Assembly (NCBI GenBank): GCA_051294905.1
Contig: CM119373.1
Location: forward strand, 8,184,001 to 8,248,000
From: Botryllus schlosseri
Lineage: Eukaryota
Direction: 5' to 3'
DNA length: 64,000 bases
Made by a program: the position numbers and the translations under genes. This document shows positions 14,130 through 32,823 of the stretch, in pieces. Below the pieces are notes generated by a model that did no database searches, was not told where the DNA came from, and saw only the letters and a program-made list of their open reading frames with translations. How positions within the stretch are numbered: the first letter of the stretch is position 1; the number at the start of each line of letters is the position of its first letter.

Positions 14130-14267
14130 CTCGACCAGAAAAAAAATGAGAACAGTCCATTTGATTTACCGTTACCAGATTTGAATGTCTCAATGAGTTT
14201 ACCGTTGTGAATTAACGCGCCAAAAGTAGTTATTTAAACACCACTACGAGTGAGTGGGACATGAGAA

Positions 14268-14629: not shown

Positions 14630-14857
14630 ATGATGATTTGTATTGTCTTGTCTCGACTTTGTTAGGTTGTGCTTTCAGTGCATACTCGTTACTGTCTCGT
14701 TGCGATATAGTGCTACTAGCTTCGTGGTTCTGACACAATTTTTTCTAACACTAAAGCTTTGAGAATAGAGAGGCACAAATGTAGGATGAGATTTATTATT
14801 CAGACCAAATAGGAATTTACCATTTTATTTTCCATTAACACATATTCAACCAGTAAT

Positions 14858-15443: not shown

Positions 15444-15521
15444 ATTGATTCTAAATTAATATAGAAAACACAATATAGTTATTATTCAGTGAAAACATGA
15501 ATCCCCACACGAGAAAATAGA

Positions 15522-15875
15522 TTAAGAATGAGTCTTGTCATATCTTTTACTTAGTAAAGCACAACGACTATTCACTTGTTCATGCTCAACCCATACATTA
15601 TCACAATGACAGAGATTTTCGAATAGTTTTCCACACATATAGCATTTGGCTAAATTTTCGAAGCCGAGATGAAAATAACCACATTCTGCTAATTGATAGG
15701 CACTACTGTTGAAATTTTCTTTGTAAGGTTCGAACGAACGTAATCTACGTTCAAAATTCATATTGAAAAACACAGCTTCGTTCTGCTTCGCATTTCGATT
15801 ACAAATTTCATAAACGATATCACCGACTTCATTCTTCATTGCCTGATGTGCACCTAACGGCTTAATAGACACCAT
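15522..15875 (-). CDS. Single-BIR inhibitor-of-apoptosis protein (117 aa)
   Basis: RLRSF...LAECGYF...CYMC...EH......C provides the BIR Zn ligands. No RING domain. Confidence 0.88.
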   Translation of the reverse strand: MVSIKPLGAHQAMKNEVGDIVYEICNRNAKQNEAVFFNMNFERRLRSFEPYKENFNSSAYQLAECGYFHLGFENLAKCYMCGKLFENLCHCDNVWVEHEQVNSRCALLSKRYDKTHS

Positions 15876-15939
15876 CTCGTTATATTGAAGAACTGAAATA
15901 TTTATAAGAATAGGAGCTTTTATAGCTGTGTAGAATGCG

Positions 15940-16195
15940 ATGCTGTATTCTGATTGGAAGATTTTTCAACTTTGAAATGCTTGGTGGTCGTTTGATTTAA
16001 ATTTACAACATTCCAAAGTTCGAATATGTTGTTGGTTAAAAAATACATTGAAAGTATTGGTCTAGAACACGATACTGTATTCTGATTGGTAGATTTCCAA
16101 CTTTGAAATGATTGGTCGTACTTTGATTTAAATTTATGACATTCCAGAGTTTGAATATGTTGTTGGTTAAAAAATTCGTTGAAAGTATTGGTATG
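15940..16195. promoter_or_regulatory. Duplicated ~130-bp module with CCAAT boxes between divergent Polinton genes
   Basis: Two diverged direct copies beginning (GC/AC)TGTATTCTGATTGG, between the IAP (-) and the 16553 ORF (+). The promoter role is inferred. Confidence 0.45.
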
Positions 16196-16552
16196 AATTG
16201 TAACGAACGTTACTTTCGCGCACTTCCATTTATTTGAGAGTTCAATCTGAGTTTACTTTGTTTTAAGAAATTTGATAGAGGTTCGTTTTACCGTCTACTA
16301 TTCATTGCTTTTCAAACACTCAATGCATTGTTTGCTCTACCAACAAAGCGAAAACGACGGTTGGGAATGTCTTTTGTTCGAACGGGCTGTTACTATCTAT
16401 CAACAATTTCACATCCTAACGGTTAATGTTTGTCCGTTAGTGAGCGAACATTTTTCTTATGTGATTCTGGCGCGAAGCATTTTCGTATAAGATTAGCCGA
16501 ATGTGAAATGAGTTATCACTAAATCTGAGCGAATCAGTGAAAAGTATTCGAG

Positions 16553-18157
16553 ATGTCTTTGCAAATTGAAGTAATTATGGATGATGATAGTCAGCAGTTG
16601 CCAAGCAACCAATCAACCCGAGAAAGCAGTGACCATGCATTGAGTGTAGAAATTCCGAATCATATGAAATGTGATCAAATGGATAAAGATGATGAGGAAC
16701 TCGTCGCTATGGATCGATACTTTAGACCCATAACGAAGATCCCATCTGCTAAAGAAGTTCTTCTGAAATCTTTGAGCGAAGAAGAATTTCGCGATCGCGT
16801 TGTCATACGTCAGATATGTCCCGCATTCAAAACTGATTCATCCCCATCAAAACAACAGGCTAATGACATCGAGCTAATTAGCAACGAGACCCAACTTAAG
16901 GATCAATTGATACCTCTGAGTCAATCAACACCAGTAGGTGAACAACCCGTTTATGACGTTGAGAAAGTGACTAGCGATCCGACCCCTTCTGATACTGTCA
17001 ATCATCAAGCTTCGGGACAAGCAGTAGGCAATCCCGACACGGAAATGGATTTGTCTCTTGGTGCGGAGGCGATTGCCGAAAGTAGCGAGCCGCTAGGTGA
17101 AATTTCTCGTGATAGCAATGAGATCGCGAAGCAAATCCTACTGCGTCGTATAGAGAAGAGCACATCGCAAGTTACAGAGCAACCTACTTTTAGCGAGCTT
17201 GTCGCCGATTCCACTCATATCTCAAGTGGTTTTTCCGACTCTAATGTTGGTTCTATACCAAAGCCGAATATACTATCATCGCCAGATTCGTCAATAAGGA
17301 TCTTTCCTAGATATTGGATCCAGCATGATCGTCCGGTCATTAACCCACCGCAATGGCATATAGGTGACACTACCAAAGCAGAACAGAAGTATGATGAGAA
17401 GAATCGCGTATTCATGCGTTGGCTAGTTGGATTTAGAGAGGCGACAGAAATACATGAGGGTTATCTCATGTATAGATATCTGGAAGAAAATATTGTTGAT
17501 ATACAATATGGCGGGTTGAAACGGAGTCTCAATTTTCTTCGCGCCGCTCTGATTGTAGCTGTCGGTGAAAGCTTGACTCATGAAAAATTACTTGCTCCAC
17601 ACTTCTTTCTGGAAGGGGATTGCCTTTCTGGAAAGGAAGTATTGCACGAAATGCTTTTCGGTAGTGAAACAGCAAATTATTTGCTGCCGAGTTTGGAAAA
17701 TTTGAATGCTTTCAAATATTATGATGCTACAAAATGTGTTTCTGTGTTTCCCAACTGCGGAACGCTTTTCTTTGAAAATACTGCTTTACAGGAAACAATT
17801 TTGACTATACATCGTACAGCAGTGCAATGTGAATACGGGATTATTAATCCATCTTGCTGCTTCATGCTTTGTGATAAACAAAATGGCTCTGACTTGATGA
17901 CTGTCAAACATCCTATATCATTCAAGGCTAAAACGGTCATTGTAAAATTTGGAAGGGGTATTTACGCACCTTCTCTGGCCAGTTTCAACAAACATGCCCG
18001 TCGTGATGTTCTGTTTGATTTAATAAAGAGAACTAAAACTTCAAATATTAAAGAAGTTAATGGCTGTGTTGAGAAGGATCCCTTGGCTCAAGTACTGTAT
18101 CTCAGAGCATCTGGCTTCAGAAGGAGAAAGGAAAAAGCTGATAATGATACTCTTTGA
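16553..18157 (+). CDS. 534-aa protein: low-complexity N-terminus plus degenerate SF3 (NS1-like) helicase-like domain
   Basis: Long intact ORF. HFFLEGDCLSGKE resembles Walker A with T/S replaced by E. The downstream NLNAFKYYDATKCVSVF is spaced like the NS1 N..F.F.D / Walker B region but lacks the acidic residues. Confidence 0.55.
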   Translation: MSLQIEVIMDDDSQQLPSNQSTRESSDHALSVEIPNHMKCDQMDKDDEELVAMDRYFRPITKIPSAKEVLLKSLSEEEFRDRVVIRQICPAFKTDSSPSKQQANDIELISNETQLKDQLIPLSQSTPVGEQPVYDVEKVTSDPTPSDTVNHQASGQAVGNPDTEMDLSLGAEAIAESSEPLGEISRDSNEIAKQILLRRIEKSTSQVTEQPTFSELVADSTHISSGFSDSNVGSIPKPNILSSPDSSIRIFPRYWIQHDRPVINPPQWHIGDTTKAEQKYDEKNRVFMRWLVGFREATEIHEGYLMYRYLEENIVDIQYGGLKRSLNFLRAALIVAVGESLTHEKLLAPHFFLEGDCLSGKEVLHEMLFGSETANYLLPSLENLNAFKYYDATKCVSVFPNCGTLFFENTALQETILTIHRTAVQCEYGIINPSCCFMLCDKQNGSDLMTVKHPISFKAKTVIVKFGRGIYAPSLASFNKHARRDVLFDLIKRTKTSNIKEVNGCVEKDPLAQVLYLRASGFRRRKEKADNDTL

Positions 18158-18316
18158 ATAATATGTTTTGCTTGTACGATTGTTATTTGCATGAACGATC
18201 GTTACCAATTCGAATTTTGTTTGCACCTTGACATTATGACTGAAAACTTAGCTGATGTATATATTATTTGCATGAATGATTGTCACTAATTCGAATTTTG
18301 TTTGCAGCTTAACATT

Positions 18317-18727
18317 ATGAATGATAACTTAGCCGATATAGCTGCATCCACCACTCAGAGAGACATGACACAAATTAGCGATATGTCGGCCTTCTATCAA
18401 AGTCTAATGGATCCACAGGAACCTTCACGAAAGCGTCCTCGTCAAGATATTGGTTCTTACTTCGAACACATGATGGATGATCATTTGAAAATGCAAGCGA
18501 TGTGGAACCGCCTCATTTCGATGGAAGGATTCGAACAAGACTGGACAAAAAATTTTCTTGTCATTGCAAAAAACGTGATCAAAGATATCGAAAAACTGTT
18601 GTGTGACGATAAAACAGACTCGAATATTCGTGATACTGAGATTGCTAGATTGGACAGAATTAAGTTCATGTTTCTGTACGGTCTAAACCAATCTAAATTG
18701 CGCTTGAGATATAATTTCGTTTTCTAG
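18317..18727 (+). CDS. Hypothetical protein (136 aa) with NLS-like RKRPR
   Basis: ATG-initiated ORF directly upstream of pPolB. No recognisable domain. Confidence 0.55.
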   Translation: MNDNLADIAASTTQRDMTQISDMSAFYQSLMDPQEPSRKRPRQDIGSYFEHMMDDHLKMQAMWNRLISMEGFEQDWTKNFLVIAKNVIKDIEKLLCDDKTDSNIRDTEIARLDRIKFMFLYGLNQSKLRLRYNFVF

Positions 18728-18905
18728 TAAGTGAAATTGTGCTTTGTTTTACAGATATGGAGTAAATATAGGTAATACTTTCAATACTTTGTTGACACAC
18801 GACTTTACGACTGGATACCGTATCATAAAGCCCAAACGGTAAGCAAAACTGTGATTGAAATAAGCTTCTCAATTTCTAATGTTCTATGTTTTACAGATAG
18901 CATAA

Positions 18906-21900
18906 ATGGCTCTACGCAGGCGATATTTGGATCGAGATTGGACCGTCGATGAATCCTTGGGCTTTGAAGATGCCGCCGTCGAAGTAATTGAAGAGCACTA
19001 CGATTCGATCATTGACTCAACGTGGACGTCGAGAAATCGCGTGCGACATATAGTCAATATTCGGATGATTGAACGAGACCCCGCAGACATTCACGCGCGT
19101 ATCGCAAGTATATACCCGCAACGATTTAGACAATTTAAAATAAATTATGGCTTTGGGTATCTACTATATAATCGCGAGTCTGAGCGATATACGTATTTTC
19201 ACCCCCAATCATCGCAAGCTGTCCTCGATGTCCCAAGAACTATCATATCGCGTGAAGATTTTGATTCGTTTAGAAATGCAATTGATTTATCGGCCGGTTA
19301 CGATTATGCGAATCGAGTCAGACCGGATACAAAATTTGTTTGTTCGGAGGTGCTACACATTACTTTATTCCTGTATGAAATGGAAAGACCTTTACTTAGC
19401 GGGGGCGTTGTCTCAGAAGAAATGGAAAGATTATCCAAATGTAGATATATCAGTGCTTTTATTCGTAATCGTGAAGGTGTACCATATACAGATAATCTCT
19501 GTCTGTTTCGATGCGTCTCATTTAGATTAATTAAAAAACGTGACGAAAGTCATGTTTCTCAATTGACTACGCAATTTGAAAATCGTTACGGAATTTCAGT
19601 TGCAAATGGTATATCCTTCGACCAACTATCGAAAGTGGAAGCGTGTTTTAACGTTAGAATATTGCTTTACGAGAAACGTGAACAAACCACGGTCTTGCGT
19701 CGTACTTCCAATGCGTCTGGACTCACAATTCATATTCACATGCTCGAAAATCACTGTTCTTTAATTTTGAATATAGAGAATTATACGTCTACTTTTATGT
19801 GTGATTCGTGTAAAACATTCTTTACCTTGAAAAGTAGTTTAAAACGACATATTAAAAATCATTGTAATTCTGAGAAAAGGTATCGCTACGGTTCTGGTGT
19901 TTATCGTCCTAAAGCGACGGTGTTTGAAGATTTGGAAAATGAAGGTATATTTGTTAGTAAAGAAAAACGTTTTTACAAATTCAGAATTTGCTTTGACTTT
20001 GAGAGTCTCTTAGTAAAAGAAAATCTCAAGCCCGATACAGCCAAAGTAAAATTTACCAGTAAACATGTCCCGCTCTCGGTCTCACTGTGTGATAATGTCA
20101 CGAACGAAACAACTACATTTATTTCCAATGGCAACCCGCGTGATCTAATTAAAGAAATGGTCGATAAGCTTCATGAAATTCAAGAAATTGCGTCTTCGCA
20201 AATGCGTGCTATATATGACACCGAGTTGACCGCTCTTCGCGACTTGATTGAAGAACGTAAAGTGATTGATCCGATTAAAACGCGATCGTACCTGGAGTTG
20301 TTGTATCATCGCTTTGAAACGTGGTTAGATCAAATACCCGTAATCGGATTCAACTCGGCTCGCTACGATTTAAATCTGTGTAAAAAATATTTGATTGCTC
20401 TTTTGCGAGAGGAGAGCGGCTTTTTTGTATTGAAGCGAAACAGCAGTTACCTCACTATCTCCACAAATAAATTGAAATTTCTAGATATATCTCTATTCCT
20501 CGCTCCGGGATATAGCCTGGATGCGTATTTGAAAGTGTACGGTGATGGAGTAAACAATAAATTTTTCTTTCCATACGAATATATGACGCATATTGATAAA
20601 TTGAAAGAAACATCGCTACCGCCACACGATAGCTTTTATAGTAGTCTTCGCGGGCATAATATTACAGCTGAACAATACCAAGAATGCGTCGATACTTGGA
20701 AGCGTCTCGATATGAAAACAATGAGGGATTTTTTAAAATACTACAATGAATGTGATGTGGTCGGCTTTCTCGTCGCGGTAAATAACCACTTCGACTTTTA
20801 TAAAAAACTGGGGATTGACATGTTCAAAAATCACGTCAGCTTACCGAGTATAGCTAATCGACTTATGTTCGATGAAAGGTGGGAAATCGCTTTATTCAAT
20901 AAAGCCAATGCCGATCTCCATCACACTGTAACTAATAACTTAATCGGTGGATTGGCACAAATTACAAACCGGTATGCAATGGCAGACGAGACCAAAATTC
21001 GCATTTTGAAGTATGGAGACGCAGCCAAAGACGTGAAATCTATAGTAGGGTATGACAGCAACGCATTATACTTGCACGCCATTGATCTCAATATGCCAAC
21101 TGGATATGTCACCCGTTGGCTGTATGATGAAGTGAAACAGAAATTTCATAGAAAACAGACTTATCCGTCCATGATCGAACTCGAGTGGTTAACTTATCAA
21201 AGCATTGTTCGCGGTATTCCGATTCGTCACGCTTGGAACGGTCCGCAAGTGAAACTGGGAGCCCGTAGAATTAGCGTAGATGGATACTCAGCGGAGCGGA
21301 AGTTAATATTCAACATGGACGGATGTTGGTGGCACTCGTGTCCTTGTATATCTAATAATCAAAATATTAATCATAATCGACGCATTAAAACCGAAGAAAC
21401 CACCGCTTATTTTGAACGCCTAGGATATCAGGTCATTCGAGTGCGCGAATGTGAATGGAAAGCAATGAAGCGCGATCCAGACATTGCGCGCCTCGTTGCA
21501 CATTTACAAAGGAATGTGACAAAAGAATATTTACTCTCGCAAGAACAAATACTCGATCGAGTCGTTAACAATCGCTTTTTCGGTGCGATAGAATGCGACG
21601 CGCATTGCCCAGATCATTTGAAATCTAAGTTTGAAGAGTTACCGCCTTTCTTTAAGCACATCGAAATTAATGAATGTGATATCGGTCCGCATATGGCTCA
21701 ATACGCAAGGGAAAACAAAGTCAAGTTTCCAAAAAAAGCGCTCGCGTCCAGTTATTTCATCGAAAAGCAATTGGTTACTACCGACTTGTTGAGTTGGTAC
21801 TTGCGTCACGGAATGGTGGTCACACGTGTTTATCAATGTTTGGAATATGAACCTAAAAGACTATTTCGCAACTTCGTAGATCGCGTAACTACGCTACGGC

Positions 21901-22772
21901 GTAAAGGTGACGTCATTCCTAGAGACCATGCACTTGAAATGCAGGCATTAACCTTCAAGAATCTTGGAAATAGTGCTTTCGGAACCACTATACAAAATCC
22001 AGCCAAATATAAAAATCACAAATATGTGACTTGCGATGAAGTTCAAGCGCTCATCAAAAAACCGAATTTTATCGACGCTGATGAAATTGATTCGGACTTA
22101 ATTGAAGTAACCTCACGGCCCGATACGACTCAACTTGATCAACCCGTCATCGTAGGCTTCTTCATATTTAATCACAGTAAGCAACGGATGTTGTCGTTCA
22201 TGTATGACTTCCTCCACGTCTACATAAACGATTGTGATCAATTTCATCTTGAACTTGACACCGACAGCTGTTATTTAGCGATATCAGCTGATTCTATCTA
22301 CTCATTGATCATACCTTCAAAGCGTAAAGAGTTCTTTGAAGTTCATGATCAGTGGTTGGTTCAGCAGGCGTGCGTTAAGCATAAAACAGACTTCGAGAGG
22401 GACCCAGTCGCATTCAAAATCGATGAACCGTGCTGTGTCGCTGCTCATAATTACTCTAAGCGAACACCGGGTCTGTTTAAAGTAGAATGGAGTGGACGGG
22501 GGTTTGTTGGCCTCAATTCAAAAACCTACTATTGCTCGGGTGATACAGATAAATATTCATCGAAAGGTTTGAGTAAAACGGCCCGCAAAACTTTCAAAGA
22601 TTTCAAAGGTGTATTGCAAAACCGTTCTATATCAGGAGGGTATAACTCCGGATTCCGTTGCTTTCAGGGAGATATATATACATATCATCAATATCGTTCC
22701 GCTCTATCATACGGTTACTATAAAAGAATTGTATTGAGTGATGGGATTCATACTGTACCGCTTGCTTTGTAA
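18906..22772 (+). CDS. polB: Protein-primed DNA polymerase B with N-terminal vOTU-like region, C2H2 finger and inserted nuclease-like domain
   Basis: Exonuclease motifs CFDFES, GFNSARYD and YNECDV. Polymerase motifs YDSNALY, KNLGNSAFG and LDTDS. DNLCLFRC..NHCSLI (OTU-like dyad), CDSC..LKRH..H finger, and VDGY...MDGCWWHSC insert. Confidence 0.97.
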   Translation: MALRRRYLDRDWTVDESLGFEDAAVEVIEEHYDSIIDSTWTSRNRVRHIVNIRMIERDPADIHARIASIYPQRFRQFKINYGFGYLLYNRESERYTYFHPQSSQAVLDVPRTIISREDFDSFRNAIDLSAGYDYANRVRPDTKFVCSEVLHITLFLYEMERPLLSGGVVSEEMERLSKCRYISAFIRNREGVPYTDNLCLFRCVSFRLIKKRDESHVSQLTTQFENRYGISVANGISFDQLSKVEACFNVRILLYEKREQTTVLRRTSNASGLTIHIHMLENHCSLILNIENYTSTFMCDSCKTFFTLKSSLKRHIKNHCNSEKRYRYGSGVYRPKATVFEDLENEGIFVSKEKRFYKFRICFDFESLLVKENLKPDTAKVKFTSKHVPLSVSLCDNVTNETTTFISNGNPRDLIKEMVDKLHEIQEIASSQMRAIYDTELTALRDLIEERKVIDPIKTRSYLELLYHRFETWLDQIPVIGFNSARYDLNLCKKYLIALLREESGFFVLKRNSSYLTISTNKLKFLDISLFLAPGYSLDAYLKVYGDGVNNKFFFPYEYMTHIDKLKETSLPPHDSFYSSLRGHNITAEQYQECVDTWKRLDMKTMRDFLKYYNECDVVGFLVAVNNHFDFYKKLGIDMFKNHVSLPSIANRLMFDERWEIALFNKANADLHHTVTNNLIGGLAQITNRYAMADETKIRILKYGDAAKDVKSIVGYDSNALYLHAIDLNMPTGYVTRWLYDEVKQKFHRKQTYPSMIELEWLTYQSIVRGIPIRHAWNGPQVKLGARRISVDGYSAERKLIFNMDGCWWHSCPCISNNQNINHNRRIKTEETTAYFERLGYQVIRVRECEWKAMKRDPDIARLVAHLQRNVTKEYLLSQEQILDRVVNNRFFGAIECDAHCPDHLKSKFEELPPFFKHIEINECDIGPHMAQYARENKVKFPKKALASSYFIEKQLVTTDLLSWYLRHGMVVTRVYQCLEYEPKRLFRNFVDRVTTLRRKGDVIPRDHALEMQALTFKNLGNSAFGTTIQNPAKYKNHKYVTCDEVQALIKKPNFIDADEIDSDLIEVTSRPDTTQLDQPVIVGFFIFNHSKQRMLSFMYDFLHVYINDCDQFHLELDTDSCYLAISADSIYSLIIPSKRKEFFEVHDQWLVQQACVKHKTDFERDPVAFKIDEPCCVAAHNYSKRTPGLFKVEWSGRGFVGLNSKTYYCSGDTDKYSSKGLSKTARKTFKDFKGVLQNRSISGGYNSGFRCFQGDIYTYHQYRSALSYGYYKRIVLSDGIHTVPLAL

Positions 22773-22798
22773 TAAAATGTTGTCTGTTTTGTAATAAA

Positions 22799-23419
22799 AT
22801 GGAGCGTGCACGTGTCTTAAATTCTCCGTTCAGGATGATCATAGCTGGACCTTCGAGCTGCGGTAAGACATGTTTTGCCTATCGCCTTGTGCAAAATGCC
22901 AAGAAGATCATTGCGCCTTATCCAAGGAAGATTATTTGGCTGTACAATAATTATCAGCCGTTATACGATAAAATGAAGGGTGTGAAATTCCACCAAGGTC
23001 TAGGCGAGTTAGAACATTTACAGCAGGGTGGTAATGGACACACTCTGATAATACTAGACGACATGATGACGGAAGCACAACAAGCGAGGGACCTATTCAT
23101 ACGTCATTCCCATCATAATAATGTCTCAGTAATCCTATTAGTCCAGAACATATTTCACCGAGGTGGTGGTTTTCGTGACGTCACTCTCAGCGCTAGCTAT
23201 ATTGTGGTGTTTAAAAATCCACGTGACGTTTCACAAATACGTTACCTTTCACGGCAAATGTTCCCGGACAATCCTACTATGCTTACAGAAGCATACAAAA
23301 GAGCAACTCGCGAACCTTATTCATATATTGCCATTGATTTAACCCAAGAGACACCGGAAAAGTATCGACTTCGTACCAACATATTTCCGGACGAACGCAT
23401 GACTGTGTATTTGGAATAA
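22799..23419 (+). CDS. FtsK/A32-like DNA packaging ATPase
   Basis: Walker A GPSSCGKT, Walker B LIILDD, and RHSHH and VVFKNPRD motifs typical of Polinton ATPases. Confidence 0.95.
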   Translation: MERARVLNSPFRMIIAGPSSCGKTCFAYRLVQNAKKIIAPYPRKIIWLYNNYQPLYDKMKGVKFHQGLGELEHLQQGGNGHTLIILDDMMTEAQQARDLFIRHSHHNNVSVILLVQNIFHRGGGFRDVTLSASYIVVFKNPRDVSQIRYLSRQMFPDNPTMLTEAYKRATREPYSYIAIDLTQETPEKYRLRTNIFPDERMTVYLE

Positions 23420-23454
23420 ATAGCGCGCTGCTCGAACGATAATCATCATTCGTG

Positions 23455-23864
23455 ATGGCTAAGGACGCGCGAAGACTCATTTTGAAAAAACGTTTAAAAG
23501 ATCATCTTACCAAATTGAAAACTTTACGGAGGGCTAAAAACCCCGAACGTATTCAGTTATTGAAGCATAAGGAATTTGTCGCTAGTGTGTGCGAGTGTCT
23601 TCGAAACCTGGTGGCGGGCGATGTACCTATTTCTAACGCAAGAAAATCTAAATTGAAAAAACACAAAGCCAGCATACGGAAGGTCCTCTGTTGCAAACTC
23701 AAAAAGGCAGGCGCAAAGTTTTGCAAAGAGGTGGCTTTCTTTCGGGTAAATACGTGTAACTTTGATTCAATACTTTATCTAACGTTATTCCGTTCCTAGC
23801 CATTTTGAGTGCCGCTATTCCGATACTGGGAAGCCTCTTGGGCGGACTGACGAGAAATGCGTGA
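23455..23864 (+). pseudogene. Basic virion protein with C-terminal amphipathic QRGGFL helix (pVI/cupiennin-like); frameshift near 23701-23705 and predicted intron 23746-23799
   Basis: N-terminal ORF VCECLRNLVAGDVPI. A shifted frame gives RRKVLQRGGFLS, which splices (GTAAAT...TTCCTAG, 54 nt) to AILSAAIPILGSLLGGLTRNA*. Confidence 0.7.
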
Positions 23865-24321
23865 GCTCTATTTTCCACCGCTACTAACAAAAGATGGATA
23901 CGAAAGGAAATTTGACAAACATATTGCCAAAATCAGAGACTCGGATTTGACTCGCGTGCAAAAACTAGCGCTTTACAAACACGGTATCAATGTCTTGAGA
24001 AACCTAAGAAAGAATGACGCGACGATAAAAGCGCTCGCAAACGCTTCGTCACTTGACGATAAAAACGCGTCGCCGCCCGTCATTAAAGCAGACGCAGCGC
24101 GCGCGCCACCATCTGATGACACAAACGCGACGCCGGGGCCCCCGCACGCGTTAAATTGGAGCGTTACTAAACAGGAGGGAGATACTCCAAAGAAGAAAAA
24201 ACCCAAGAAAAAAGCAAAGAAAAAGGTCGACCTCAAACCTCCGCTTAACTGGAAAGAACTCGATACTCCACGTCAACAAAAGCCCAATCAACGCTACTTT
24301 GGGAAGCTATGGACAAACTAG
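23857..24321 (+). CDS. Lys-rich hypothetical Polinton protein (154 aa)
   Basis: ATG ORF overlapping both neighbours, with a poly-Lys tract. Position between the ATPase block and integrase. Confidence 0.7.
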   Translation: MRELYFPPLLTKDGYERKFDKHIAKIRDSDLTRVQKLALYKHGINVLRNLRKNDATIKALANASSLDDKNASPPVIKADAARAPPSDDTNATPGPPHALNWSVTKQEGDTPKKKKPKKKAKKKVDLKPPLNWKELDTPRQQKPNQRYFGKLWTN

Positions 24322-25313
24322 ACTACTTCGATCCCAAAAAACCCAATTCTTATAGGGGTGCTTACCTACAGAAAGACAGCGAGTGGTTGAAGGGACAAGA
24401 TAGTTATACCTATCACTTTCCCATTCGAAAAAGATTTAAACGTCGTCAAGTTGTTGTGTCAGGGATCGGAGCGCAGTTTCAAAGCGATTTAATCGACGTA
24501 CAGTCTATTTCAAAATACAATCGTGGGTTTAGATATATCGTTCTTATTATTGATGTTTTCTCCAAGTATGTGTGGATGATTCCGATTAAAAATAAATCGA
24601 GTGACAACATGATATCTGCTTTCAAAAAAGTTTTCAAAGAGAGCCTTCCATTAGTGCTACAGACAGACAGAGGTACAGAATACTCGAGTCGAGCTTTTCA
24701 GAATTTTCTCAGAAAAAACAAGGTGCGGTACTTTTACACGAAAAGCGAATTGAAATCTTCGATTGCGGAAAGGGCTATCCGTAGTTTCCGTCAAATCTTC
24801 TACCGCTATTTCACGAAAAATAACACCAGCAATTATATCGATGTGCTAGATGATATGGTCTATTCGTACAATCACACCAGACACCGCTCGTTAGGGATCC
24901 CTCCTAGTGAAGTTAATAGACATAATCAAGAAAGCATTTGGCAAAAAATGTATGGATTTCGCGACTCCAAACTACCCACTTTAGCGGTCGGGACCCCTGT
25001 ACGCATCTCGAAAATTCGCAATCTGTTTGAGAAGTCTAGTCGACCCAACTGGCAACCCGAGATATTTTACATTGCCAAAGCCATGAAAGGAGATCCGCCA
25101 ACGTATCGCTTACGTGATTACAATAACGAAATAATTGACGGACAATTTTACAGACAAGAAATTCAACCCGTTACTGAACCGCAAAAATGGCAAGTCGAAA
25201 AGATTATAAAGAGGCGACGGCGTGGTAAACGCAGTCAGTTTTTAGTGAAGTGGTTGAATTATGGACCGGAATTCAATACCTGGGTCGATCAAAAAGATAT
25301 CGTCGAACCGTAA
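24309..25313 (+). CDS. Retroviral-like (rve) integrase with C-terminal chromodomain
   Basis: QSDLID, LQTDRGTEY and SIAERAIRS give the DDE triad. WQVEKIIKRR..FLVKWLNYGPEFNTWV is a chromodomain. Confidence 0.96.
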   Translation: MDKLDYFDPKKPNSYRGAYLQKDSEWLKGQDSYTYHFPIRKRFKRRQVVVSGIGAQFQSDLIDVQSISKYNRGFRYIVLIIDVFSKYVWMIPIKNKSSDNMISAFKKVFKESLPLVLQTDRGTEYSSRAFQNFLRKNKVRYFYTKSELKSSIAERAIRSFRQIFYRYFTKNNTSNYIDVLDDMVYSYNHTRHRSLGIPPSEVNRHNQESIWQKMYGFRDSKLPTLAVGTPVRISKIRNLFEKSSRPNWQPEIFYIAKAMKGDPPTYRLRDYNNEIIDGQFYRQEIQPVTEPQKWQVEKIIKRRRRGKRSQFLVKWLNYGPEFNTWVDQKDIVEP

Positions 25314-25473
25314 CTTTTATCAATTCATTGCTCAAGTTATAATTATACTGCTCATCGTGAGTTTTTCGCTGTATAATTTGAGTGTCGTGCAAGACAACAA
25401 AGAGCTTTGGGTGTCGCTGTTATCATCGTGTGTGGGATATATGTTACCGGCTCCAAAGATACCCAAACTATGA
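25261..25473 (+). CDS. Small two-TM membrane protein (true start uncertain)
   Basis: QVIIILLIVSFSLYNL...ELWVSLLSSCVGYMLPAP has two hydrophobic segments. The stop overlaps the penton ATG. Confidence 0.7.
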   Translation: MDRNSIPGSIKKISSNRNFYQFIAQVIIILLIVSFSLYNLSVVQDNKELWVSLLSSCVGYMLPAPKIPKL

Positions 25474-26300
25474 GTTATATTACGTTATTTTCCAATGCCT
25501 CCATGGACAGGTTTCCACAAAATACAGCTGCGGTTTACACCAACGAACTAGACACCCCCAGAAATGTAGAAAGAAGCGAAGTCGCGTTGACTGAGATTGG
25601 CTTCCCAACCGATTTTAACGAACGGATCCCAATCACAAATAGCTACTACGGTTTCGACATTATGGGTCCCAGTGAAGTCACAAGAAGATTGAAGTTCAAA
25701 ATTGGTGAATATGAATCTGTATATGACATGTTTAAATCGTTGGAGAGCATTAATCCCGATGTGAAAGTCAAGTGTTTTCCTGAAAGTGATAGCCTGACGG
25801 TTTCGATTCCACACAAAAACATTGCAGCTAGTGCAAGACCGGGAGAGGATACGCGATATCGAATCGACACCAGAGAGTACGATTATACTGGGACACTTGA
25901 GCATCTAGAATTGGCGGTAGTTACCCTTACTCTCCTACGTTTCATATTACCGAAGAATAGAGCAGACCTATCCGCATACTTTTTTACTGACAAGACAATA
26001 CATCTCAATTTTGATGTACGACCCTTGTCGAAAATCGATTTCGTATACGTTCATTGCGACATCATTGAACCACAAGAGTCTAGCGGTTCACTACAGCGTT
26101 TATTACGAGTTGTAAAAGTCGAAGGAGATAAGAAGGTGTTTTCAAAATATTACGTAAAACCTTTCTTTCTTCCGCTAAGTATAAATAGATTGGAACGGGT
26201 AAAAATTTCCTTGCTGGATCACAAAGGGGGTGAAATTCCGTTTCGAAGCGCTCCATCGAGCGCTGTACTTCAATTCCGAAAGCGCGGTATCGCACTATGA
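25470..26300 (+). CDS. Minor capsid (penton-like) protein 1
   Basis: YITLFSNASMDRFPQN...EVALTEI at the N-terminus and VYVHCDIIEPQ..LLRVV..FLPL near the C-terminus. Confidence 0.88.
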   Translation: MSYITLFSNASMDRFPQNTAAVYTNELDTPRNVERSEVALTEIGFPTDFNERIPITNSYYGFDIMGPSEVTRRLKFKIGEYESVYDMFKSLESINPDVKVKCFPESDSLTVSIPHKNIAASARPGEDTRYRIDTREYDYTGTLEHLELAVVTLTLLRFILPKNRADLSAYFFTDKTIHLNFDVRPLSKIDFVYVHCDIIEPQESSGSLQRLLRVVKVEGDKKVFSKYYVKPFFLPLSINRLERVKISLLDHKGGEIPFRSAPSSAVLQFRKRGIAL

Positions 26301-27046
26301 AATACATTCACATTAGCAGTTTGGAATCAGATTTTGTTCTCGAGCTAGCACGACCGATTGCTGGAAAATACGAACTGGGGCTAGCGGAGTTCTCGATTCG
26401 CAACGAGTTCCAACCTACTTTACCTGCTTTCGACGCTCTGTTATGGCAATTTCAGGATGAGAAAACATCGCCTCTGATTCAAGTGGGAAGTACCAATCAT
26501 TATTATTACCCCAAGGGTAATTATTATGACTTCAAAAGTTTGATTGATAGAATCAATCGCACGCAGGACCAAGTATATATTAACCAGCTAGGAAGTTCTA
26601 CTGGTATGTTAGTCATTCCACCTTACAAATCGGGTGCGTTTCCTAATTTCCTGAAGAATCCAACCAGAGTCAGAAATCCGGTTTTCGTGTATGGAAAGCT
26701 TAGGAAGAAAAAGCTGCTAGGAGGGAATTATTTAACTTCAGAGATCACTCTGAGGGATTCCATTACGCCTATCACCAATTTATTAATTTATACCGATCTC
26801 ATTCGACCGCAATCAGTCGGCGACACGAAAGCTCCGCTATTACGAAACATCCCCATTACGAGTAGTGTCAATGAATATCAACATCATATATTCGAAAAAA
26901 TATACTTTTTCCCTATGATTACGGAATACGCTCGTCGAATTCAGATTAGTATCAAAGACGATAAAGGTACGGGTATAAATCTGAAGGGGTCCATGATTGA
27001 TATCACACTTGCTTTACGTCATCATGAGAGCACATTACTGTTGTGA
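26297..27046 (+). CDS. Minor capsid (penton-like) protein 2
   Basis: YELGLAEFS and LLIYTDLIRPQSVGDTKAPLLRNIP..IQISIKD are the same motif set as the preceding ORF. Confidence 0.88.
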   Translation: MKYIHISSLESDFVLELARPIAGKYELGLAEFSIRNEFQPTLPAFDALLWQFQDEKTSPLIQVGSTNHYYYPKGNYYDFKSLIDRINRTQDQVYINQLGSSTGMLVIPPYKSGAFPNFLKNPTRVRNPVFVYGKLRKKKLLGGNYLTSEITLRDSITPITNLLIYTDLIRPQSVGDTKAPLLRNIPITSSVNEYQHHIFEKIYFFPMITEYARRIQISIKDDKGTGINLKGSMIDITLALRHHESTLLL

Positions 27047-27392
27047 TCGCGATGCCTTTCAACAATACTATCGTGTGCAAAGTGGTAATGGCATAAACTA
27101 TTTTCGAGGACGAGTGCAAAGAGGACACGGTTTAGGAAATCTCTTTCGTAGTTTGGGACGAAGTGTTGTACCATTGATATCAAAAGGGGCGAAAGCTCTC
27201 GGCAAACAACTACTCCATACAGGAGCAGAAGTAGCTTCTGACGTATTGCGTGGGCAAAACGTCGGTGAAAGCTTCAAAATAAGAGGTAAACAAGCAGCTA
27301 GCAAAGCTCTTGACAACTTCCTAGGCAAGAGAAAGGCACCTAGAAAAAAGACCACGAAACGGAAAAAGCGCCGACGGGACATTTTCGATTAA
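27018..27392 (+). CDS. Basic core/membrane-active virion protein (QxGxG motifs)
   Basis: YYCCDRDAFQQYYRVQSGNG..QRGHGLGNLFRSLGR..., Lys/Arg-rich tail ending RRRDIFD. Usual position before the MCP. Confidence 0.8.
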   Translation, partial: VIMRAHYCCDRDAFQQYYRVQSGNGINYFRGRVQRGHGLGNLFRSLGRSVVPLISKGAKALGKQLLHTGAEVASDVLRGQNVGESFKIRGKQAASKALDNFLGKRKAPRKKTTKRKKRRRDIFD

Positions 27393-27442
27393 ATAGGACT
27401 CTCCCTACTTTATTTTTTCATTAGCTAGCAGACTCGCGAAAG

Positions 27443-28721
27443 ATGACGGAGCTAATTCACGCGAAATCTGCCGAAGGCGTACATCCTAGCTTGGATCTTT
27501 TTCAACTCCCACCTACCCAAACAAGCGTGGAGAAGAAACGGATCATTAAGATTCCACCTGTGTCGGACAACGCAAGCGTAATTATTTACCGCTATGAAGG
27601 ATGTGACGATTTTATTGATTTAAGCGAATCCTATTTTTTTATTTCGCTTGAAACTATTGAAAGGCGATGCGAATCTAGCTGCCACGGACAGCATCGGAGT
27701 TGTGAATAACATTCTTGATTCTCTAATTTCTCAACTTCACATCAAAGTCGGGAACCATACCCTGAAACAAGACGTGAAGCTACAATGTTATTCGGCCTAC
27801 TTACACTATCTGTTCACACCTCACGACGTGCAAGAGACAACACTTCTTACACAAGGATGGTTCAAGGACACAGAGAAGCAATTGGATGATTCGGCCCCAG
27901 GCGACGGTGCGGCTAACAAAGGTCATAAGGCGAGAAGTTTGCCTTATGCCGGGAGCAAAGTCGTCGAAATTCGCGGTAAAATACATCATGGGTTGTGTTT
28001 GCAAGACCGCTATATTTTGGACGAGGTTCCGTTAGAGTTCGAATTGACATTGAATCCGAAAAGTTTCTTTCTGTTTGGAGCCGCTACCAGCAATTTCAAA
28101 ATCATCAAAAAAGAATTGCACCTATGTGGAGTGCGGGTAACCGAAGATGTAAAATCTGCCTTGATGGTAGACGCACCGGCTCGGTATCCCTTTATGGACA
28201 TGAAGCTGCTGACTCGAACTTTTGCGGCTAACACCACTCAAATCGATATTGGTAATCTGTATTCGGGAACCCTGCCGACACGTTTGATTATAGCCATGGT
28301 GAAAACTGAGGCATTCCAAGGAGCACTCGATAAGAACCCATATAATTTTATTCATAATAAAATGAATCGGGTTGAATTGAAAGTAAATGGTTTCCTTATG
28401 CCGGAGGGTGGCTACGAACTTGATTTTGAAAACAATCATTATTCCGAGGCCTACCTAAATCTCATTCAATCTATGGGTGCCATCGAACGACAAAAAGGCT
28501 TGATTTCCCCTTCCGAGTTCGCAAATGGATACACGCTTCTAGCATATAATTTGCGAGGTGACGATTTAGATGACTGCTTCGAGCTGCAGAAAAGTGGAAC
28601 GATCAGTCTTCGAATCACCTTTCCTGCGGCAGGTGTTGAGAGCGAAACGACACTGCTGTGCTTTATGGAATTTCAAAAAATACTGGAAATAAGCCAAGCT
28701 CGCACGGTGACCGTGATATGA
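27443..28721 (+). pseudogene. Double-jelly-roll major capsid protein, one frameshift near 27650
   Basis: LDLFQLPPTQTSVE..IDLSESY in ORF 27443-27709 continues as KLLKGD..NNILDSLISQ..HHGLCLQDRYIL..LPTRLIIAMV..NPYNF in ORF 27648-28721. Confidence 0.92.
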
Positions 28722-29179
28722 ACGGACAAGAAATAGATGAAATATTGTATAGTTACCATGCTACGAAACAACACTATCTAGGGAATTTCCCTATTGATCA
28801 ACTCCCTCAGCGCCCAAAACCTCCTTATTCAATTGTGATCAATTATGATGAAAGTCACAAGGAAGGTAGTCACTGGGTTTGCATATATGCTGATCAATAT
28901 GAAACCCATTTTCACGATAGTCTGGGTATCACTCCATTCAGGATTGAGATTGCGAGTTTCCTTGATCCCGAAAATTATACTAGCTCAATAAAACCATTAC
29001 AGCATGAAAGGTCAGACGCTTGTGGAGCTCATGCAATTGCATATATCGTCAAACGCTCTACTGGTATGAGCACACTACAGTATTTGGATCACTTCGGTGA
29101 TGATCGAAAAGAGAACGACGATATCGTAGTGGACTTCGTTAGAATCTTGAAATGGGAGCAACTAGTTTCACCATCATAG
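28718..29179 (+). CDS. Adenain-like cysteine maturation protease
   Basis: GSHWVCIY, HDSLG and LQHERSDACG supply the His/Asp/Gln/Cys residues. ATG overlaps the MCP stop. Confidence 0.93.
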   Translation: MNGQEIDEILYSYHATKQHYLGNFPIDQLPQRPKPPYSIVINYDESHKEGSHWVCIYADQYETHFHDSLGITPFRIEIASFLDPENYTSSIKPLQHERSDACGAHAIAYIVKRSTGMSTLQYLDHFGDDRKENDDIVVDFVRILKWEQLVSPS

Positions 29180-29469
29180 AATACTTTGGAGATGATGAGA
29201 AGGCCTACATGAAAGTCCAAGGAAAAATTATTGTCATGAATGCAAATCGTATTCATAGAATTTCTTTCGAGCCGTTTCACATACGCATTTACCCGCATGA
29301 TAACGAAGTTACAATTTTCCGCGGGTCTGATTGGATACCAGTGCGTTTTCCTAAAAATTGTATGTATATAGATGTGTTGTCGAAGCATAGAATTATTCGT
29401 CGTAACCGCGGTGAACTTGTCGTTTTTCGTAAACTAAAATTATGGGAATTTTTGAGAAATCGCTTTTAA
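29152..29469 (+). CDS. Hypothetical protein
   Basis: ATG ORF overlapping the protease end, followed immediately by AATAAA. Confidence 0.55.
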   Translation: MGATSFTIIEYFGDDEKAYMKVQGKIIVMNANRIHRISFEPFHIRIYPHDNEVTIFRGSDWIPVRFPKNCMYIDVLSKHRIIRRNRGELVVFRKLKLWEFLRNRF

Positions 29470-29533
29470 TAAATTCGTGTGTATTCATCGGAGTATATAA
29501 GTGGTTATTGCTCGGGATCTAGTCAGTGTCATC

Positions 29534-30274
29534 ATGAATGCGCTTATAGTATCGATGTGTTATCGCGGAAAGCCGCACCATGTCGAAAATGAAGGAACGT
29601 TACAAGACATTCAGATTATGACAGATATCTTAGTACAGAAATTCAAATTCAAGACTGAAGATATCAAAGTGTTGCGTGAAGAGCAAGCCACTCTTGGAAA
29701 TTTTTCCAGAGAGCTTCAAACGATGGCCGATAGTAGCGCCAAGATAAACTTCATATATTTCGTCGGTCACGGCTTTTCATGTCCAAATAACACAAAAGAA
29801 AATGATCCTGAAGCTCGCGATTCCGGATTTGTATTTTATGATAGGCATCTACTCGATGATGATATGTGTGAGCTATTAAAAAGCTTTCGTAAAGATACAA
29901 AAAACCTACTCATGTTTGCGCAGTGTTATAGTGGTAACTCTGCCGATTTGAAATTTCATTTACGAGAAGACGCTGCTTCGCAAGCACTCAAGCGCAAACG
30001 AGACGTAAAATCCAAAACTGTTCTCATAAGTGCAGTTAGTGACGATCAAATCAGTTGGTGTTTTGAAGACGGTAGTGCTTTTGCAAAGAATTTCAGAACC
30101 GTCATACGTGAACACGACGAAATCAAATTCTTCGATCTTATGTGTAAATTGCGACAACTAGATAAGAGACAAAAGTGTTCGATATCATCAAGCTTCAAAT
30201 TGGATGAACACGATCATCTCATTCGAAAAAGAAGTTTCAGTTGGATAAAATCTCAATGGAAGAAATCGAAATAA
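29534..30274 (+). CDS. Metacaspase-like cysteine protease (peptidase C14, no prodomain; 246 aa)
   Basis: Colinear with type I metacaspase motifs: ALIVSMCYRG, GTLQD, FIYFVGHG (His), LLDDDM, MFAQCYSG (Cys), LISAVSDDQIS and QKCSISSS. Confidence 0.85.
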   Translation: MNALIVSMCYRGKPHHVENEGTLQDIQIMTDILVQKFKFKTEDIKVLREEQATLGNFSRELQTMADSSAKINFIYFVGHGFSCPNNTKENDPEARDSGFVFYDRHLLDDDMCELLKSFRKDTKNLLMFAQCYSGNSADLKFHLREDAASQALKRKRDVKSKTVLISAVSDDQISWCFEDGSAFAKNFRTVIREHDEIKFFDLMCKLRQLDKRQKCSISSSFKLDEHDHLIRKRSFSWIKSQWKKSK

Positions 30275-30359
30275 TAACTATCGTTGCAACCGCGCTGTTA
30301 TTTCTGGAATTCTTATTATATACGCTATTTTGCTGTGGAGAAGAATGTGAACGTAAATC

Positions 30360-30701
30360 ATGACTATGGCTCGCATTTGTATTGGTCCCCTACGCTTGAG
30401 TAGTAATGGAGATCGTAGGTATTATGAAAAAACGATTGTATTACCGAAAGTGAGATCTATCACTATTCCTTTCTCATGTGAAATAATGTATCGTACCAAT
30501 AAGATCGTAGTGAAGAAACTGCATGTTCCTCACTACGGTAAGATTGAATCTCCGACAATCACTGTCTGCAAAGACAAACATTACTGTTTACCGCGTACCT
30601 GTCCTATTCTTATAGAATTTAAAGGGAATGCGAGCGTTGTAAAAAATATAATCGTATTCGAAGCGTTACACAACGCGCGATTTTATGATGCTTGTTATTA
30701 G
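30360..30701 (+). CDS. Hypothetical beta-rich protein (113 aa)
   Basis: ATG ORF followed by AATAAA at ~30716. No recognisable domain. Confidence 0.55.
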   Translation: MTMARICIGPLRLSSNGDRRYYEKTIVLPKVRSITIPFSCEIMYRTNKIVVKKLHVPHYGKIESPTITVCKDKHYCLPRTCPILIEFKGNASVVKNIIVFEALHNARFYDACY

Positions 30702-30785
30702 TTTGATATGTCTGTAATAAAATCGCAAAACAACTACGGCTCCTCATTCGTGTTCTAGTCAGATACAGCATCAATAGAAAAGTCG

Positions 30786-30856
30786 TGGAGACTACGGGAA
30801 TTGAACCCGTATCTTCTATTTGCAAGACAGATACTCTACCATTGAGCTAAGTCCCC
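30786..30856 (-). tRNA. tRNA-Ala (UGC)
   Basis: Full cloverleaf: GGGGACT/AGTCTCC acceptor with G3:U70, D arm GCTC/GAGT, anticodon loop CT-TGC-AA, T arm ACGGG-TTCAATT-CCCGT, discriminator A, and TTTT 4 nt downstream. Confidence 0.9.
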
Positions 30857-30965
30857 ATTCAGACGAATAACAACGCAACCAGACGTTGATTTTTATTATT
30901 TATTACAAGAACAATACGGAATGTATAATGCAATTCCACGCTACTCGCGGTGGATTAAAACAACA

Positions 30966-31445
30966 CTATTTTTCTTGCTGGGTGACTTGCGTATCTTCCA
31001 TTGCATGTCTACGGGTATATTGAGTAGCTAGTTGGAAATAACGTTCCTTATTTTTTAAATACATTTCCGCACTCTCTTGATCCATCGGATCATAAGGGTT
31101 TGGTGAAGCGAGCAATGAACGTATTGATATCAGTAGAGTGGACGTTGTCATCGCTGGTGACCATTCCTTCTGTAAAATATCGACACATATGGTACCTTTA
31201 CAGCTTACGTTAGGATGGAATATCCGTGTTTCAAATCGCATTTTAGGAGGCTTGAATGGATACTCGGTAGAATATTCGATTGATAATCTGAACACACCAC
31301 CTTCGTAGGGCGTTCCGTTTGGTCCTTGGATCGTTGCCCACCAACTATACATATTCTTTTCATCGAATGGTCCTGCTCGGATCCCTTCGTAAGCATTCTG
31401 CTTAAATTTTGCTTGTTCATATATCAAACGCTTCAAAGCACGCAT
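30966..31445 (-). CDS. E2 ubiquitin-conjugating enzyme (UBE2D/E-like, intronless, 159 aa)
   Basis: GPNGTPYEGGVF, YPFKPPK, IFHPNV..GTICVDILQKEWSPA. The HPN motif and catalytic Cys are intact. Confidence 0.95.
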   Translation of the reverse strand: MRALKRLIYEQAKFKQNAYEGIRAGPFDEKNMYSWWATIQGPNGTPYEGGVFRLSIEYSTEYPFKPPKMRFETRIFHPNVSCKGTICVDILQKEWSPAMTTSTLLISIRSLLASPNPYDPMDQESAEMYLKNKERYFQLATQYTRRHAMEDTQVTQQEK

Positions 31446-31609
31446 GTCTATCGAATGATAGTATTCGAACTGTCGCACTTGCTTTCAAATAAATTATAAT
31501 TCAATCTAATTATACATGTAAATAGAAATAGGTTACAGAATAATGAATGATATGATTAATGTATGAAATGACATGCGTAGCGCATTTCAAATCTACAACA
31601 AAAAATATA

Positions 31610-31936
31610 TTAATGTATGAGATGAGATGCGTCGCTCATTTCTAATCTGTAACAATTTTTCATGAATAGGCTGTTTAATTCCACGGCGGTTCCTTGTTTG
31701 ATAGTAATACACTTTCCATTTATGCGGACATCTTCCTCATGAATCTTCATTGATTTTTTTTCGTTGTCTTCGTCACGTATGATCACCCACGTATATCCTT
31801 CACGGCGTTTTATCATGAACTGCTGCTCAAATTTTATCGTTGCTACACCCGTTACTATTATACTCTTTGAAGTTTGCTCCATTGTAATATTTGTTGGAGA
31901 TTCGAATTTGACATCGTTAATCACTATTCTTCCCAT
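31610..31936 (-). CDS. Hypothetical protein (108 aa)
   Basis: ATG ORF next to the right TIR. No recognisable domain. Confidence 0.55.
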   Translation of the reverse strand: MGRIVINDVKFESPTNITMEQTSKSIIVTGVATIKFEQQFMIKRREGYTWVIIRDEDNEKKSMKIHEEDVRINGKCITIKQGTAVELNSLFMKNCYRLEMSDASHLIH

Positions 31937-32019
31937 CGTCGCTCAATTTCGTATTGAATGGCTTAGCATCAAATTTGTGACTTAAATAGTCCCCTAAACT
32001 TCTTCTACAATCATTGTCA

Positions 32020-32823
32020 ATACAATGATGATCACACCATCGCGGAATAAACATATATATGATTGCAAACTTGTCACGTGATCAAAGCTATGTATGGTGC
32101 AATATCGCTAGGTTATTACCCATTGTGCAATAACGGACACACAACTCTTTCGCGCGCTTTTCTCTGTTTGATTTGAAATTCAAAAGTGGTCACGTGATTG
32201 GAGTGGGTCTAAGTACCCACTTTGACGCGTTAATCAAAACAACAGCAACGAACGCTAGGCGAGATGGGCAGAAGACTGCAAATCCTGAACAATGGAGGGT
32301 GTAACACCAGAACGAGCGAAAATATACTTCGAACATTTGGACAAGCACTGGGAGAGGAACTGGGATGGAGCTTGCGATGGGATGGCTGTATAGGAATAAT
32401 TGGACTGTATATAGGAATAAGAATGATTTGTAGTGATGCTAAAAAAATATATAATTACAAATTTGGTACGTGATCAAAGCTGTGTATGGTGTAATATCAC
32501 TAGCTTTGGACTTGTCTATGGTATTAACCATTGCACAATACCGTAACGTTCGCTAGCACACACCCCATTATGCTGTCACGGTTCGCTCTCCTAAGCCACA
32601 CCCATTAACACCCATTATACAATCAGCTGACACAATCATTGTCAATACAATGACGGTCACGCCCGTTATTGACATATATTGTCACCCATTGTCCCTATTG
32701 AAGCACTATCGATATAACTCTTTCGCGCGCTTTTCTCTGTTTGATTTGAAATTCAAAAGTAGTCACGTGATCAAATGCTGCGATTTGATTGGTCCGCATG
32801 AGAACGTGCTGTTATATACTACT
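32020..32823 (-). repeat. Polinton right TIR with rearranged subrepeats and an extra ~270-bp segment (~32200-32470)
   Basis: Reverse complement of 2913-3345 modules, with an unrelated block between the duplicated modules. Confidence 0.85.

Follow-up and report, generated by a model that had tools for sequence, protein, structure and literature searches.

The open reading frame at 29534..30274 of the window (the whole stretch of Botryllus schlosseri DNA analysed here, 64,000 nucleotides) encodes a protein that sequence comparison and structure prediction confirm as metacaspase-fold (C14B), and an animal Maverick lineage carries its gene as accessory cargo. Metacaspases typically occur in fungi, plants, protists and giant viruses. 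By alignment, the change in the S1 pocket of this protein is real, old and specific to the Maverick metacaspase family. The explanation we favour, and to which we give an even chance, is an accessory, prodomain-less and likely calcium-gated protease that would act on host or element proteins, probably after Arg, through a pocket with a single acid.

Identity was assessed by profile, sequence and motif comparison. The frame matched Pfam Peptidase_C14 (E 8.4e-13; 49 bits, the cut-off being 21.4). In a sequence search against the PDB the top six matches were all metacaspases or GSU0716 (AtMC4, AtMC9, GSU0716, Yca1), and the 11 matches down to E 10 included neither a caspase nor a MALT1 chain; a profile built from seven rows of the family alignment returned eight such metacaspase or GSU0716 matches (E 4.5e-12 to 9.7e-8). 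FVGHG (His79), LLDDD (Asp108/109) and AQCYSG (Cys131) pair with YSGHG, ITDDD and DSCHSG of AtMC4/Yca1. The earlier note had proposed metacaspase motifs here rather than the QACRG of caspases, and the Pfam match, the PDB matches and the motif alignment all confirm this. A search of the ESM Atlas recovered generic C14 clusters only, and the only NCBIfam match was below threshold. Where a caspase (C14A) is expected to have Arg/Gln/Arg in S1 and QACxG, we found Asp25, Ala129, Cys176 and AQCYSG; where a paracaspase (MALT1) is expected to have Asp/Asp/Glu in S1 and a six-strand sheet, we found one Asp and, in the model described below, an eight-strand order, and no Death or Ig domains are added. The prodomain of type I metacaspases, optional in some definitions, is absent: the open frame upstream adds 11 codons at most (257 aa), beta1 begins at residue 2, and no family row exceeds 270 aa. 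The long p20-p10 linker of type II is also absent, with ~20 residues from D138 to strand 161-166 vs >100 in AtMC4.

An AlphaFold2 model (pLDDT 94.2, pTM 0.90) was built on an 82-row alignment that is rich in metacaspases, which may bias the model toward a metacaspase. The model places His79 after strand 71-77 and Cys131 after strand 123-129 (pLDDT 94-98 in these blocks), so that the predicted His-Cys dyad lies at the ends of beta3 and beta4 as in metacaspases. An extra strand pair (141-143, 149-151) follows beta4 and precedes the p10 strand, matching the strand order of TbMCA2 (PMC4357240, section 7); the predicted fold is thus the eight-strand caspase/haemoglobinase fold with two extra strands. 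In structure comparison with VIA, AtMC9 scored Z 25.7 (rmsd 2.5, 217 aligned) and other metacaspases Z 20.7-25.6, with 203-222 residues aligned across metacaspases, vs 184-198 for caspases and legumain (legumain Z 20.5 with 193 aligned, best caspase 19.8 with 185). Foldseek TM values were 0.73-0.75 for most metacaspases and 0.53-0.63 for MALT1, legumain and caspases (MALT1 alone 0.53-0.56). The best matches among viral models were Fadolivirus (TM 0.86), Heterosigma akashiwo virus (0.80) and Clandestinovirus (0.79); an ascovirus caspase reached TM 0.55. The model is therefore nearest to metacaspases, above MALT1, legumain and caspases, and together with the profile scores given below it supports the assignment to metacaspases rather than to caspases or paracaspases.

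The gene lies in a Maverick/Polinton copy, whose features are collected in Table 1. Inverted repeats with AGTAGT/ACTACT ends and a 6-bp target duplication define these elements (PMC8097293), and two further copies have target duplications CAAATT and TGCATT. The left arm of the window copy contains ~10.4 kb of extra DNA (~3350-13790) without long ORFs, which is missing from the copy on C10. The gene set expected of a Maverick (pPolB, integrase, ATPase, capsid, protease) was found, with the polymerase and the adenain-like protease assigned from motifs and place: the 1288-aa ORF, for which Pfam gave weak zinc-finger matches only, is presumably the protein-primed DNA polymerase B, and the ORF at 28718..29179 we take to be adenain-like. 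The metacaspase ORF begins 355 nt past the latter, with one 105-aa ORF in between. Family B, described below, has TATATATAAG at a place comparable to the TATA-like site of family A.

Table 1. Coordinates of the Maverick copy, its genes and the residues discussed in the text (positions in the window)
Feature	Position	Strand	Basis or remark
Maverick/Polinton copy	2913..32823	.	AGTAGT...ACTACT ends, ~210-nt inverted repeats, GACCTT target duplication
Stand-alone Death-domain cargo gene	13866..14129	+	Pfam Death E 6e-11
Single-BIR (IAP-like) cargo gene	15522..15875	-	Pfam BIR E 1.3e-10
Long ORF, 1288 aa, presumed protein-primed DNA polymerase B	18906..22772	+	Motifs and place
A32-type packaging ATPase	22799..23419	+	Pfam Pox_A32 E 2.5e-10
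Integrase with chromodomain	24309..25313	+	Pfam rve and Chromo
Major capsid protein gene, frameshifted in the window copy	27443..28721	+	Weak DJR-like match E 0.005; split frames
Presumed adenain-like maturation protease	28718..29179	+	His, Asp, Gln..Cys motifs; no Pfam match
TATA-like TATATAAG	29494..29501	+	33 nt 5' of metacaspase start codon; putative promoter
Metacaspase-fold (C14B) gene	29534..30274	+	246 aa, no prodomain, short p20-p10 linker
Asp25, retained alpha1 S1 acid (TbMCA2 Asp95 equivalent)	29606..29608	+	Asp in 16/16 covering rows
His79, catalytic dyad position	29768..29770	+	Aligns with catalytic His of AtMC4/Yca1; 13/13 full family-A copies
Stretch with four putative calcium-site Asp (D96, D108, D109, D138)	29819..29947	+	Sequence alignment
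Ala129-Gln130, L4 S1 Asp (TbMCA2 Asp211 equivalent) replaced	29918..29923	+	Family alignment
Cys131, catalytic dyad position	29924..29926	+	Cys in 20/20 family rows
tRNA-Ala(TGC) within the element	30785..30856	-	ARAGORN
Ubiquitin-conjugating E2 cargo gene	30966..31445	-	Pfam UQ_con E 4.3e-47

Several further observations concern the element and its surroundings. Overlapping the metacaspase gene at its end is a 35-aa ORF (30256-30363, +) that contains a hydrophobic stretch and a cluster of Cys and resembles a small membrane protein; a 38-aa look-alike occupies the same place in family C (L167 2637-2753). The tRNA cargo of family A is Ala; family C (L166, L167) carries Pro plus Ala, and one family-B copy (L019) has Ala and Pro at its end. 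The E2 gene is common to families A and C (63% identity). The window is nested over 156-38065: the Maverick lies inside a 21-bp tandem array, which lies inside a stretch bounded by inverted repeats (~1350-35470) that appears to interrupt a Pao-type retrotransposon. An insertion preference for the 21-bp array was ruled out, as the flanks were unlike it at 11 other copy ends. One family-C copy on C15 (L260 6552-8345) has structural genes also present as inverted copies in its left arm.

A search of the genome gave 16 matches among 17 candidates scored, all in Mavericks of two families, A and B, with capsid and adenain-like genes upstream in 16/16. Family A comprises 13 full-length copies at 96.9-100% DNA identity, one of them with a stop, and one further truncated copy; the two copies of family B are 66-67% identical to the window protein, and in family B a three-BIR gene comes directly after the metacaspase gene. 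Variants within family A numbered 18 synonymous, 20 non-synonymous and 1 stop (ratio ~0.27), and between A and B the metacaspase gene has dN 0.25 at saturated synonymous sites (pS 0.81), the same dN as the ATPase (0.25) and the integrase (0.25). The gene is under purifying selection. Two canonical metacaspase queries hit the same 16 places in the genome and nothing else, a search that an intron-rich resident gene could escape, and a metacaspase profile gave none of 41 host C14 loci more than 3.3 bits.

The capsid query found at least 150 Maverick places in the genome. The metacaspase gene was absent downstream of the capsid in the 14 Maverick stretches examined (families C, D, E and outgroups), of which 12 fully cover the downstream slot and two (L171, L176) do not contain a capsid gene plus the full slot. 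Family C is sister to A in the capsid tree (100/99), is 88% identical to it in the capsid segment, and keeps the order of adenain, 105-aa ORF, 113-aa ORF, tRNA and E2, with the metacaspase alone missing; its TATA-like site runs straight into the small membrane ORF, which in A lies 3' of the protease gene. Because this nearest sister family is without the gene, we regard the metacaspase as accessory cargo and not as a capsid-maturation enzyme. The earlier note had pointed to a position just downstream of the capsid/protease block; the position stands but has no functional weight, since family C has the block without the gene. As the gene is present in A and B with a core-like distance between them, ancestral inheritance with losses in C and D/E would be the simplest account. 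In one family-C copy BIR and Death genes are present without the metacaspase, which rules out an obligate pairing with either; that both persist there without the protease also speaks against a fixed module of the three.

The origin of the gene was approached through database searches and trees. In a search of 1.84 billion representatives, 4,702 proteins matched at E 0.001 and 7 at 1e-30, and beyond the family itself the next-ranked proteins carry metacaspase motifs. Queries from the top relatives fetched giant-virus contigs (41/80 loci named GVMAG), with a capsid gene adjoining one. On the family profile, metacaspases of viral contigs scored up to 96 bits (median 63, n=73), prokaryotic ones up to 62 (median 47.5, n=81), and host caspases and MALT1 up to 10.5 (n=10), both the viral and the prokaryotic set having grown from the top hits of the family itself, with the prokaryotic rows confined to one clade. 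The fourth calcium Asp occurs in 20/20 family rows, 72/73 viral and 1/81 prokaryotic. The viral Asp count at the L4 pocket position and the high viral scores are partly built in, because the search pattern holds the L4 Asp and the queries were the family's top hits. Trees gave the family as a clade (100/99) with P0009 as sister (97/97), and all three trees ended in a polytomy at its place; P0017/P0158 joined it at 97 and 90 in two trees and below 80 in the careful tree. In four AU tests no grouping was rejected (host caspases p 0.26, MALT1 p 0.058, three prokaryotic sequences p 0.19). When viral contigs were scanned with the family alignment, with P0017 and with P0009, no relative was returned; two metagenome scans returned none, and a scan with the sister alignment A6 gave one distant match (31%). 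Members outside the genome sit on contigs no longer than 2.9 kb, and the Maverick context is documented for the Botryllus schlosseri genome only. A giant-virus or protist donor is likely. As to the phylogeny proposed as a check in the earlier note, the AU tests are as compatible with a grouping with host caspases, MALT1 or prokaryotic sequences; its suggestion of horizontal acquisition by the virus is supported by the virus-like carrier and by the lack of a resident metacaspase among the genome matches.

The catalytic and pocket residues were compared with those of TbMCA2, in which S1 is formed by Cys92, Asp95, Ser156 and Asp211 and calcium is bound by Asp173, 189, 190 and 220 (PMC4357240). 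The S1 equivalents here are Thr22, Asp25, Val77 and Ala129, that is, three changes (Cys>Thr, Ser>Val, Asp>Ala) and one of the four residues kept, and we therefore file the Maverick metacaspase as a variant and not as a plain member. Across the family, position 22 is Thr in 15/16 covering rows, position 77 Val or Ile in 17/17, position 129 Ala in 19/20 and Ser in 1/20, position 130 Glu in 14/20 and Gln in 6/20, and position 175 Trp in 15/17, with the L5 acid lost too (Cys/Val/Ser). The putative calcium positions D96, D108, D109 and D138 are Asp in 17/18, 19/19, 19/19 and 20/20 covering rows, consistent with the four-Asp calcium site of metacaspases. In the comparison sets, which exclude domains spanning <150 positions, position 129 is Asp in 81/81 prokaryotic rows, in 150/152 unlabelled relatives and in 73/73 viral rows, where it was built into the search pattern for most. 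The loss of the L4 Asp that the earlier note had read from D-S-C-H-S-G becoming A-Q-C-Y-S-G is thus family-wide and unseen in these sets; its description of an altered S1 was right in this loss and understated in extent, since the Cys92 and Ser156 equivalents are also changed and the alpha1 Asp is kept. The two exceptions among the 152 unlabelled rows are P0009 and its cluster mate P0154, sister proteins with Glu on L4 and without the alpha1 Asp, a second and different rebuild of the pocket. Because P0009, without the alpha1 Asp, carries the L4 Glu, one pocket acid appears always to be kept.

Among known systems, type I metacaspases (TbMCA2 4AF8/4AFP, Yca1 4F6O, and CgMCA-I of Candida glabrata 7QP0/7QP1) are alike in predicted fold (Z 21-25.6) and have in common with the Maverick protein the dyad positions, the alpha1 Asp, the four calcium Asp and the short p20-p10 linker. 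They differ in their N-terminal prodomain (the Maverick protein aligns from TbMCA2 residue 73), in the L5 Ala-Asp that is Trp-Cys/Val/Ser in the Maverick family, and in that the Maverick gene is on an animal mobile element. Giant-virus metacaspases (Fadolivirus, Clandestinovirus, Heterosigma akashiwo virus 01, GVMAG) are the best viral structural matches and have the top profile scores among the labelled sets, and many are of similar size and also without a long prodomain; however, they have pocket Cys in 71/73, Ser in 71/73 and L4 Asp in 73/73 (pattern-built for most), and they reside in large DNA viruses, whereas the Maverick gene belongs to an animal's integrating element of 19 kb. The type II enzymes AtMC9 (8A53) and AtMC4 (6W8S) are the top sequence and Z matches and likewise have no prodomain, but the Maverick protein is without their long linker and autoinhibitory motif and has four calcium Asp vs three in AtMC9.

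In the mechanism that we favour, the gene would be transcribed from its own TATA-like site while the element is active, and its product would be controlled by Ca2+ alone, with no inhibitory prodomain. We infer a calcium-gated protease from the dyad and calcium positions, which selection has retained, and from the absence of a prodomain. Clan CD P1 specificity rests on alpha1, L4 and L5 (PMC4357240), and of these the Maverick protein keeps an acid at alpha1 only. In gingipain R one alpha1 Asp (Asp163) together with an L5 Trp (Trp284) makes for exclusive cleavage after Arg (PMC4357240); by analogy Asp25 may anchor a P1 Arg here, next to Trp175 as the putative counterpart of Trp284. Gingipain R (C25) is a precedent for the pocket (alpha1 Asp plus L5 Trp) and not a relative, being of another family and topology. 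Arg is favoured because the alpha1 Asp25 is kept, and we regard a basic P1, argued from residues and from this analogy, as an evenly balanced call. Against it stand the three of four TbMCA2 binding/activity residues that are changed and the lost L5 acid; both S1 Asp are termed highly important for basic substrates (PMC6426788), and loss of the pocket Cys alone lowers AtMC9 activity by 90% and TbMCA2 activity markedly (PMC5756287), the TbMCA2 mutant data being taken from reviews. The new substrate preference suggested in the earlier note is the less likely reading, given the retained alpha1 Asp and the single acid by which gingipain R holds Arg (PMC4357240).

A protease that is active but has a new P1 is possible but doubtful: Thr22, Val77, Ala129 and an uncharged L5 would make a wider, greasier pocket for a neutral or hydrophobic residue, and, just as tentatively, Asp25 or Glu/Gln130 would supply a polar contact. 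Every change puts a small or hydrophobic residue in place of a polar or acidic one and is fixed across the family, with the dyad and calcium sites intact, two of the three clan CD determinants are without charge (PMC4357240), and within the clan MARTX-CPD accepts Leu (PMC4357240). However, Asp25 is invariant (16/16), the characterised non-caspase C14 enzymes treated in PMC5756287 all cleave after Arg or Lys, and one acid suffices in gingipain R (PMC4357240). A third C14 specificity, neither Asp nor Arg/Lys, that is giant-virus- or protist-derived, calcium-switched and used by the integrating element on the animal cell-death machinery, we consider an unlikely possibility. A weak or inactive decoy or scaffold, which would bind calcium and a host partner (e.g. 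a death-pathway protein) with no meaningful cleavage, is improbable: pocket residues required for the activity of TbMCA2 and AtMC9 are altered (PMC4357240, PMC5756287) and an intact dyad is no proof of activity (PMC5756287), but sequences of 36-66% identity still share the His, the Cys, the Gly after the His and the calcium Asp, and cyanobacterial pseudo-orthocaspases are the opposite case, with the dyad lost and the pocket retained (PMC6426788). The gene's place directly past the capsid and adenain genes, with which it shares a strand, and the use of metacaspases in protein maturation suggested for algal viruses (PMC10583209), would suit a second maturation protease for capsid, core or polymerase proteins of the element; we think this very improbable, as family C has all the neighbours without the gene, D and E are also without it, and the element already has an adenain-like gene. 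Capture of a host caspase or paracaspase that then diverged strongly is scarcely credible and already contradicted by predicted fold and profile, for although the AU tests tolerate it, Trp175 stands at the aromatic L5 position of caspases/MALT1 and the host has many intronless caspase genes, profile scores vs host caspase loci are at most 11.5 bits, the fold, extra strands and four-Asp calcium site are metacaspase traits, and the closest sequences in the 1.84 billion representatives have metacaspase motifs.

Returning to the favoured calcium-gated, probably Arg-directed protease, its company of BIR, Death and E2 genes, with the three-BIR gene in family B, suggests control of host cell death or immunity. 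It may steer these jointly with the BIR, Death-domain and E2 cargo, and its action may evade defences built around Asp-specific caspases. The cell-death cargo of adintoviruses/Mavericks and the caspases of ascoviruses offer a parallel in virus-borne death-pathway genes, as BIR, Death and E2 are here: adintoviruses encode IAP, Bcl2 and gasdermin homologues (PMC8502044), and giant-virus metacaspases, of unclear role, and ascovirus caspases are known (PMC10583209). Neither PMC8502044 nor PMC8097293 has the word "caspase" in its main text, the supplements of the former possibly listing more cargo, and a literature search with subscription papers mostly outside it found nothing joining metacaspase with Polinton, or polinton with caspase and inhibitor of apoptosis. 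The earlier note had metacaspases generally absent from animals; they are rare there but not unheard of, a metacaspase whose origin appears fungal being reported in bdelloid rotifers (PMC11258130). The Maverick gene adds a protease to the known death-pathway cargo of these elements, offers a route by which a protease type generally lacking in animals can enter and persist in an animal genome, and suggests gene flow from the giant-virus/protist world into animal Mavericks. It is also a natural experiment on clan CD specificity, with the predicted dyad and calcium site kept and 3/4 S1 residues changed.

Expression data were sparse. In 3-4% of the reads of two single-cell runs, 45 and 44 reads fell on the element, too thin to count either way, with 0 reads in three bins over 28950-30791 and some sense-strand reads in the bin of the E2 gene; a third RNA run gave 0 reads on the element, again too thin either way. 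Two presumed RNA runs yielded short contigs on the metacaspase gene, but these runs were found via the gene.

The host encodes QACRG caspases and a MALT1-like gene (L067) elsewhere in its genome. Intronless host caspases are expanded (L050, L054-L058, L060-L066), with QMCRG in most. A further set of intronless host frames (L070, L071, L074-L082; ~580-680 aa) has two caspase-like domains each, the first with NYCR and the second with DYCRG or DCCRG, that is, Asp where caspases have Gln, and these may be basic-P1 or decoy-plus-enzyme relatives of caspases.
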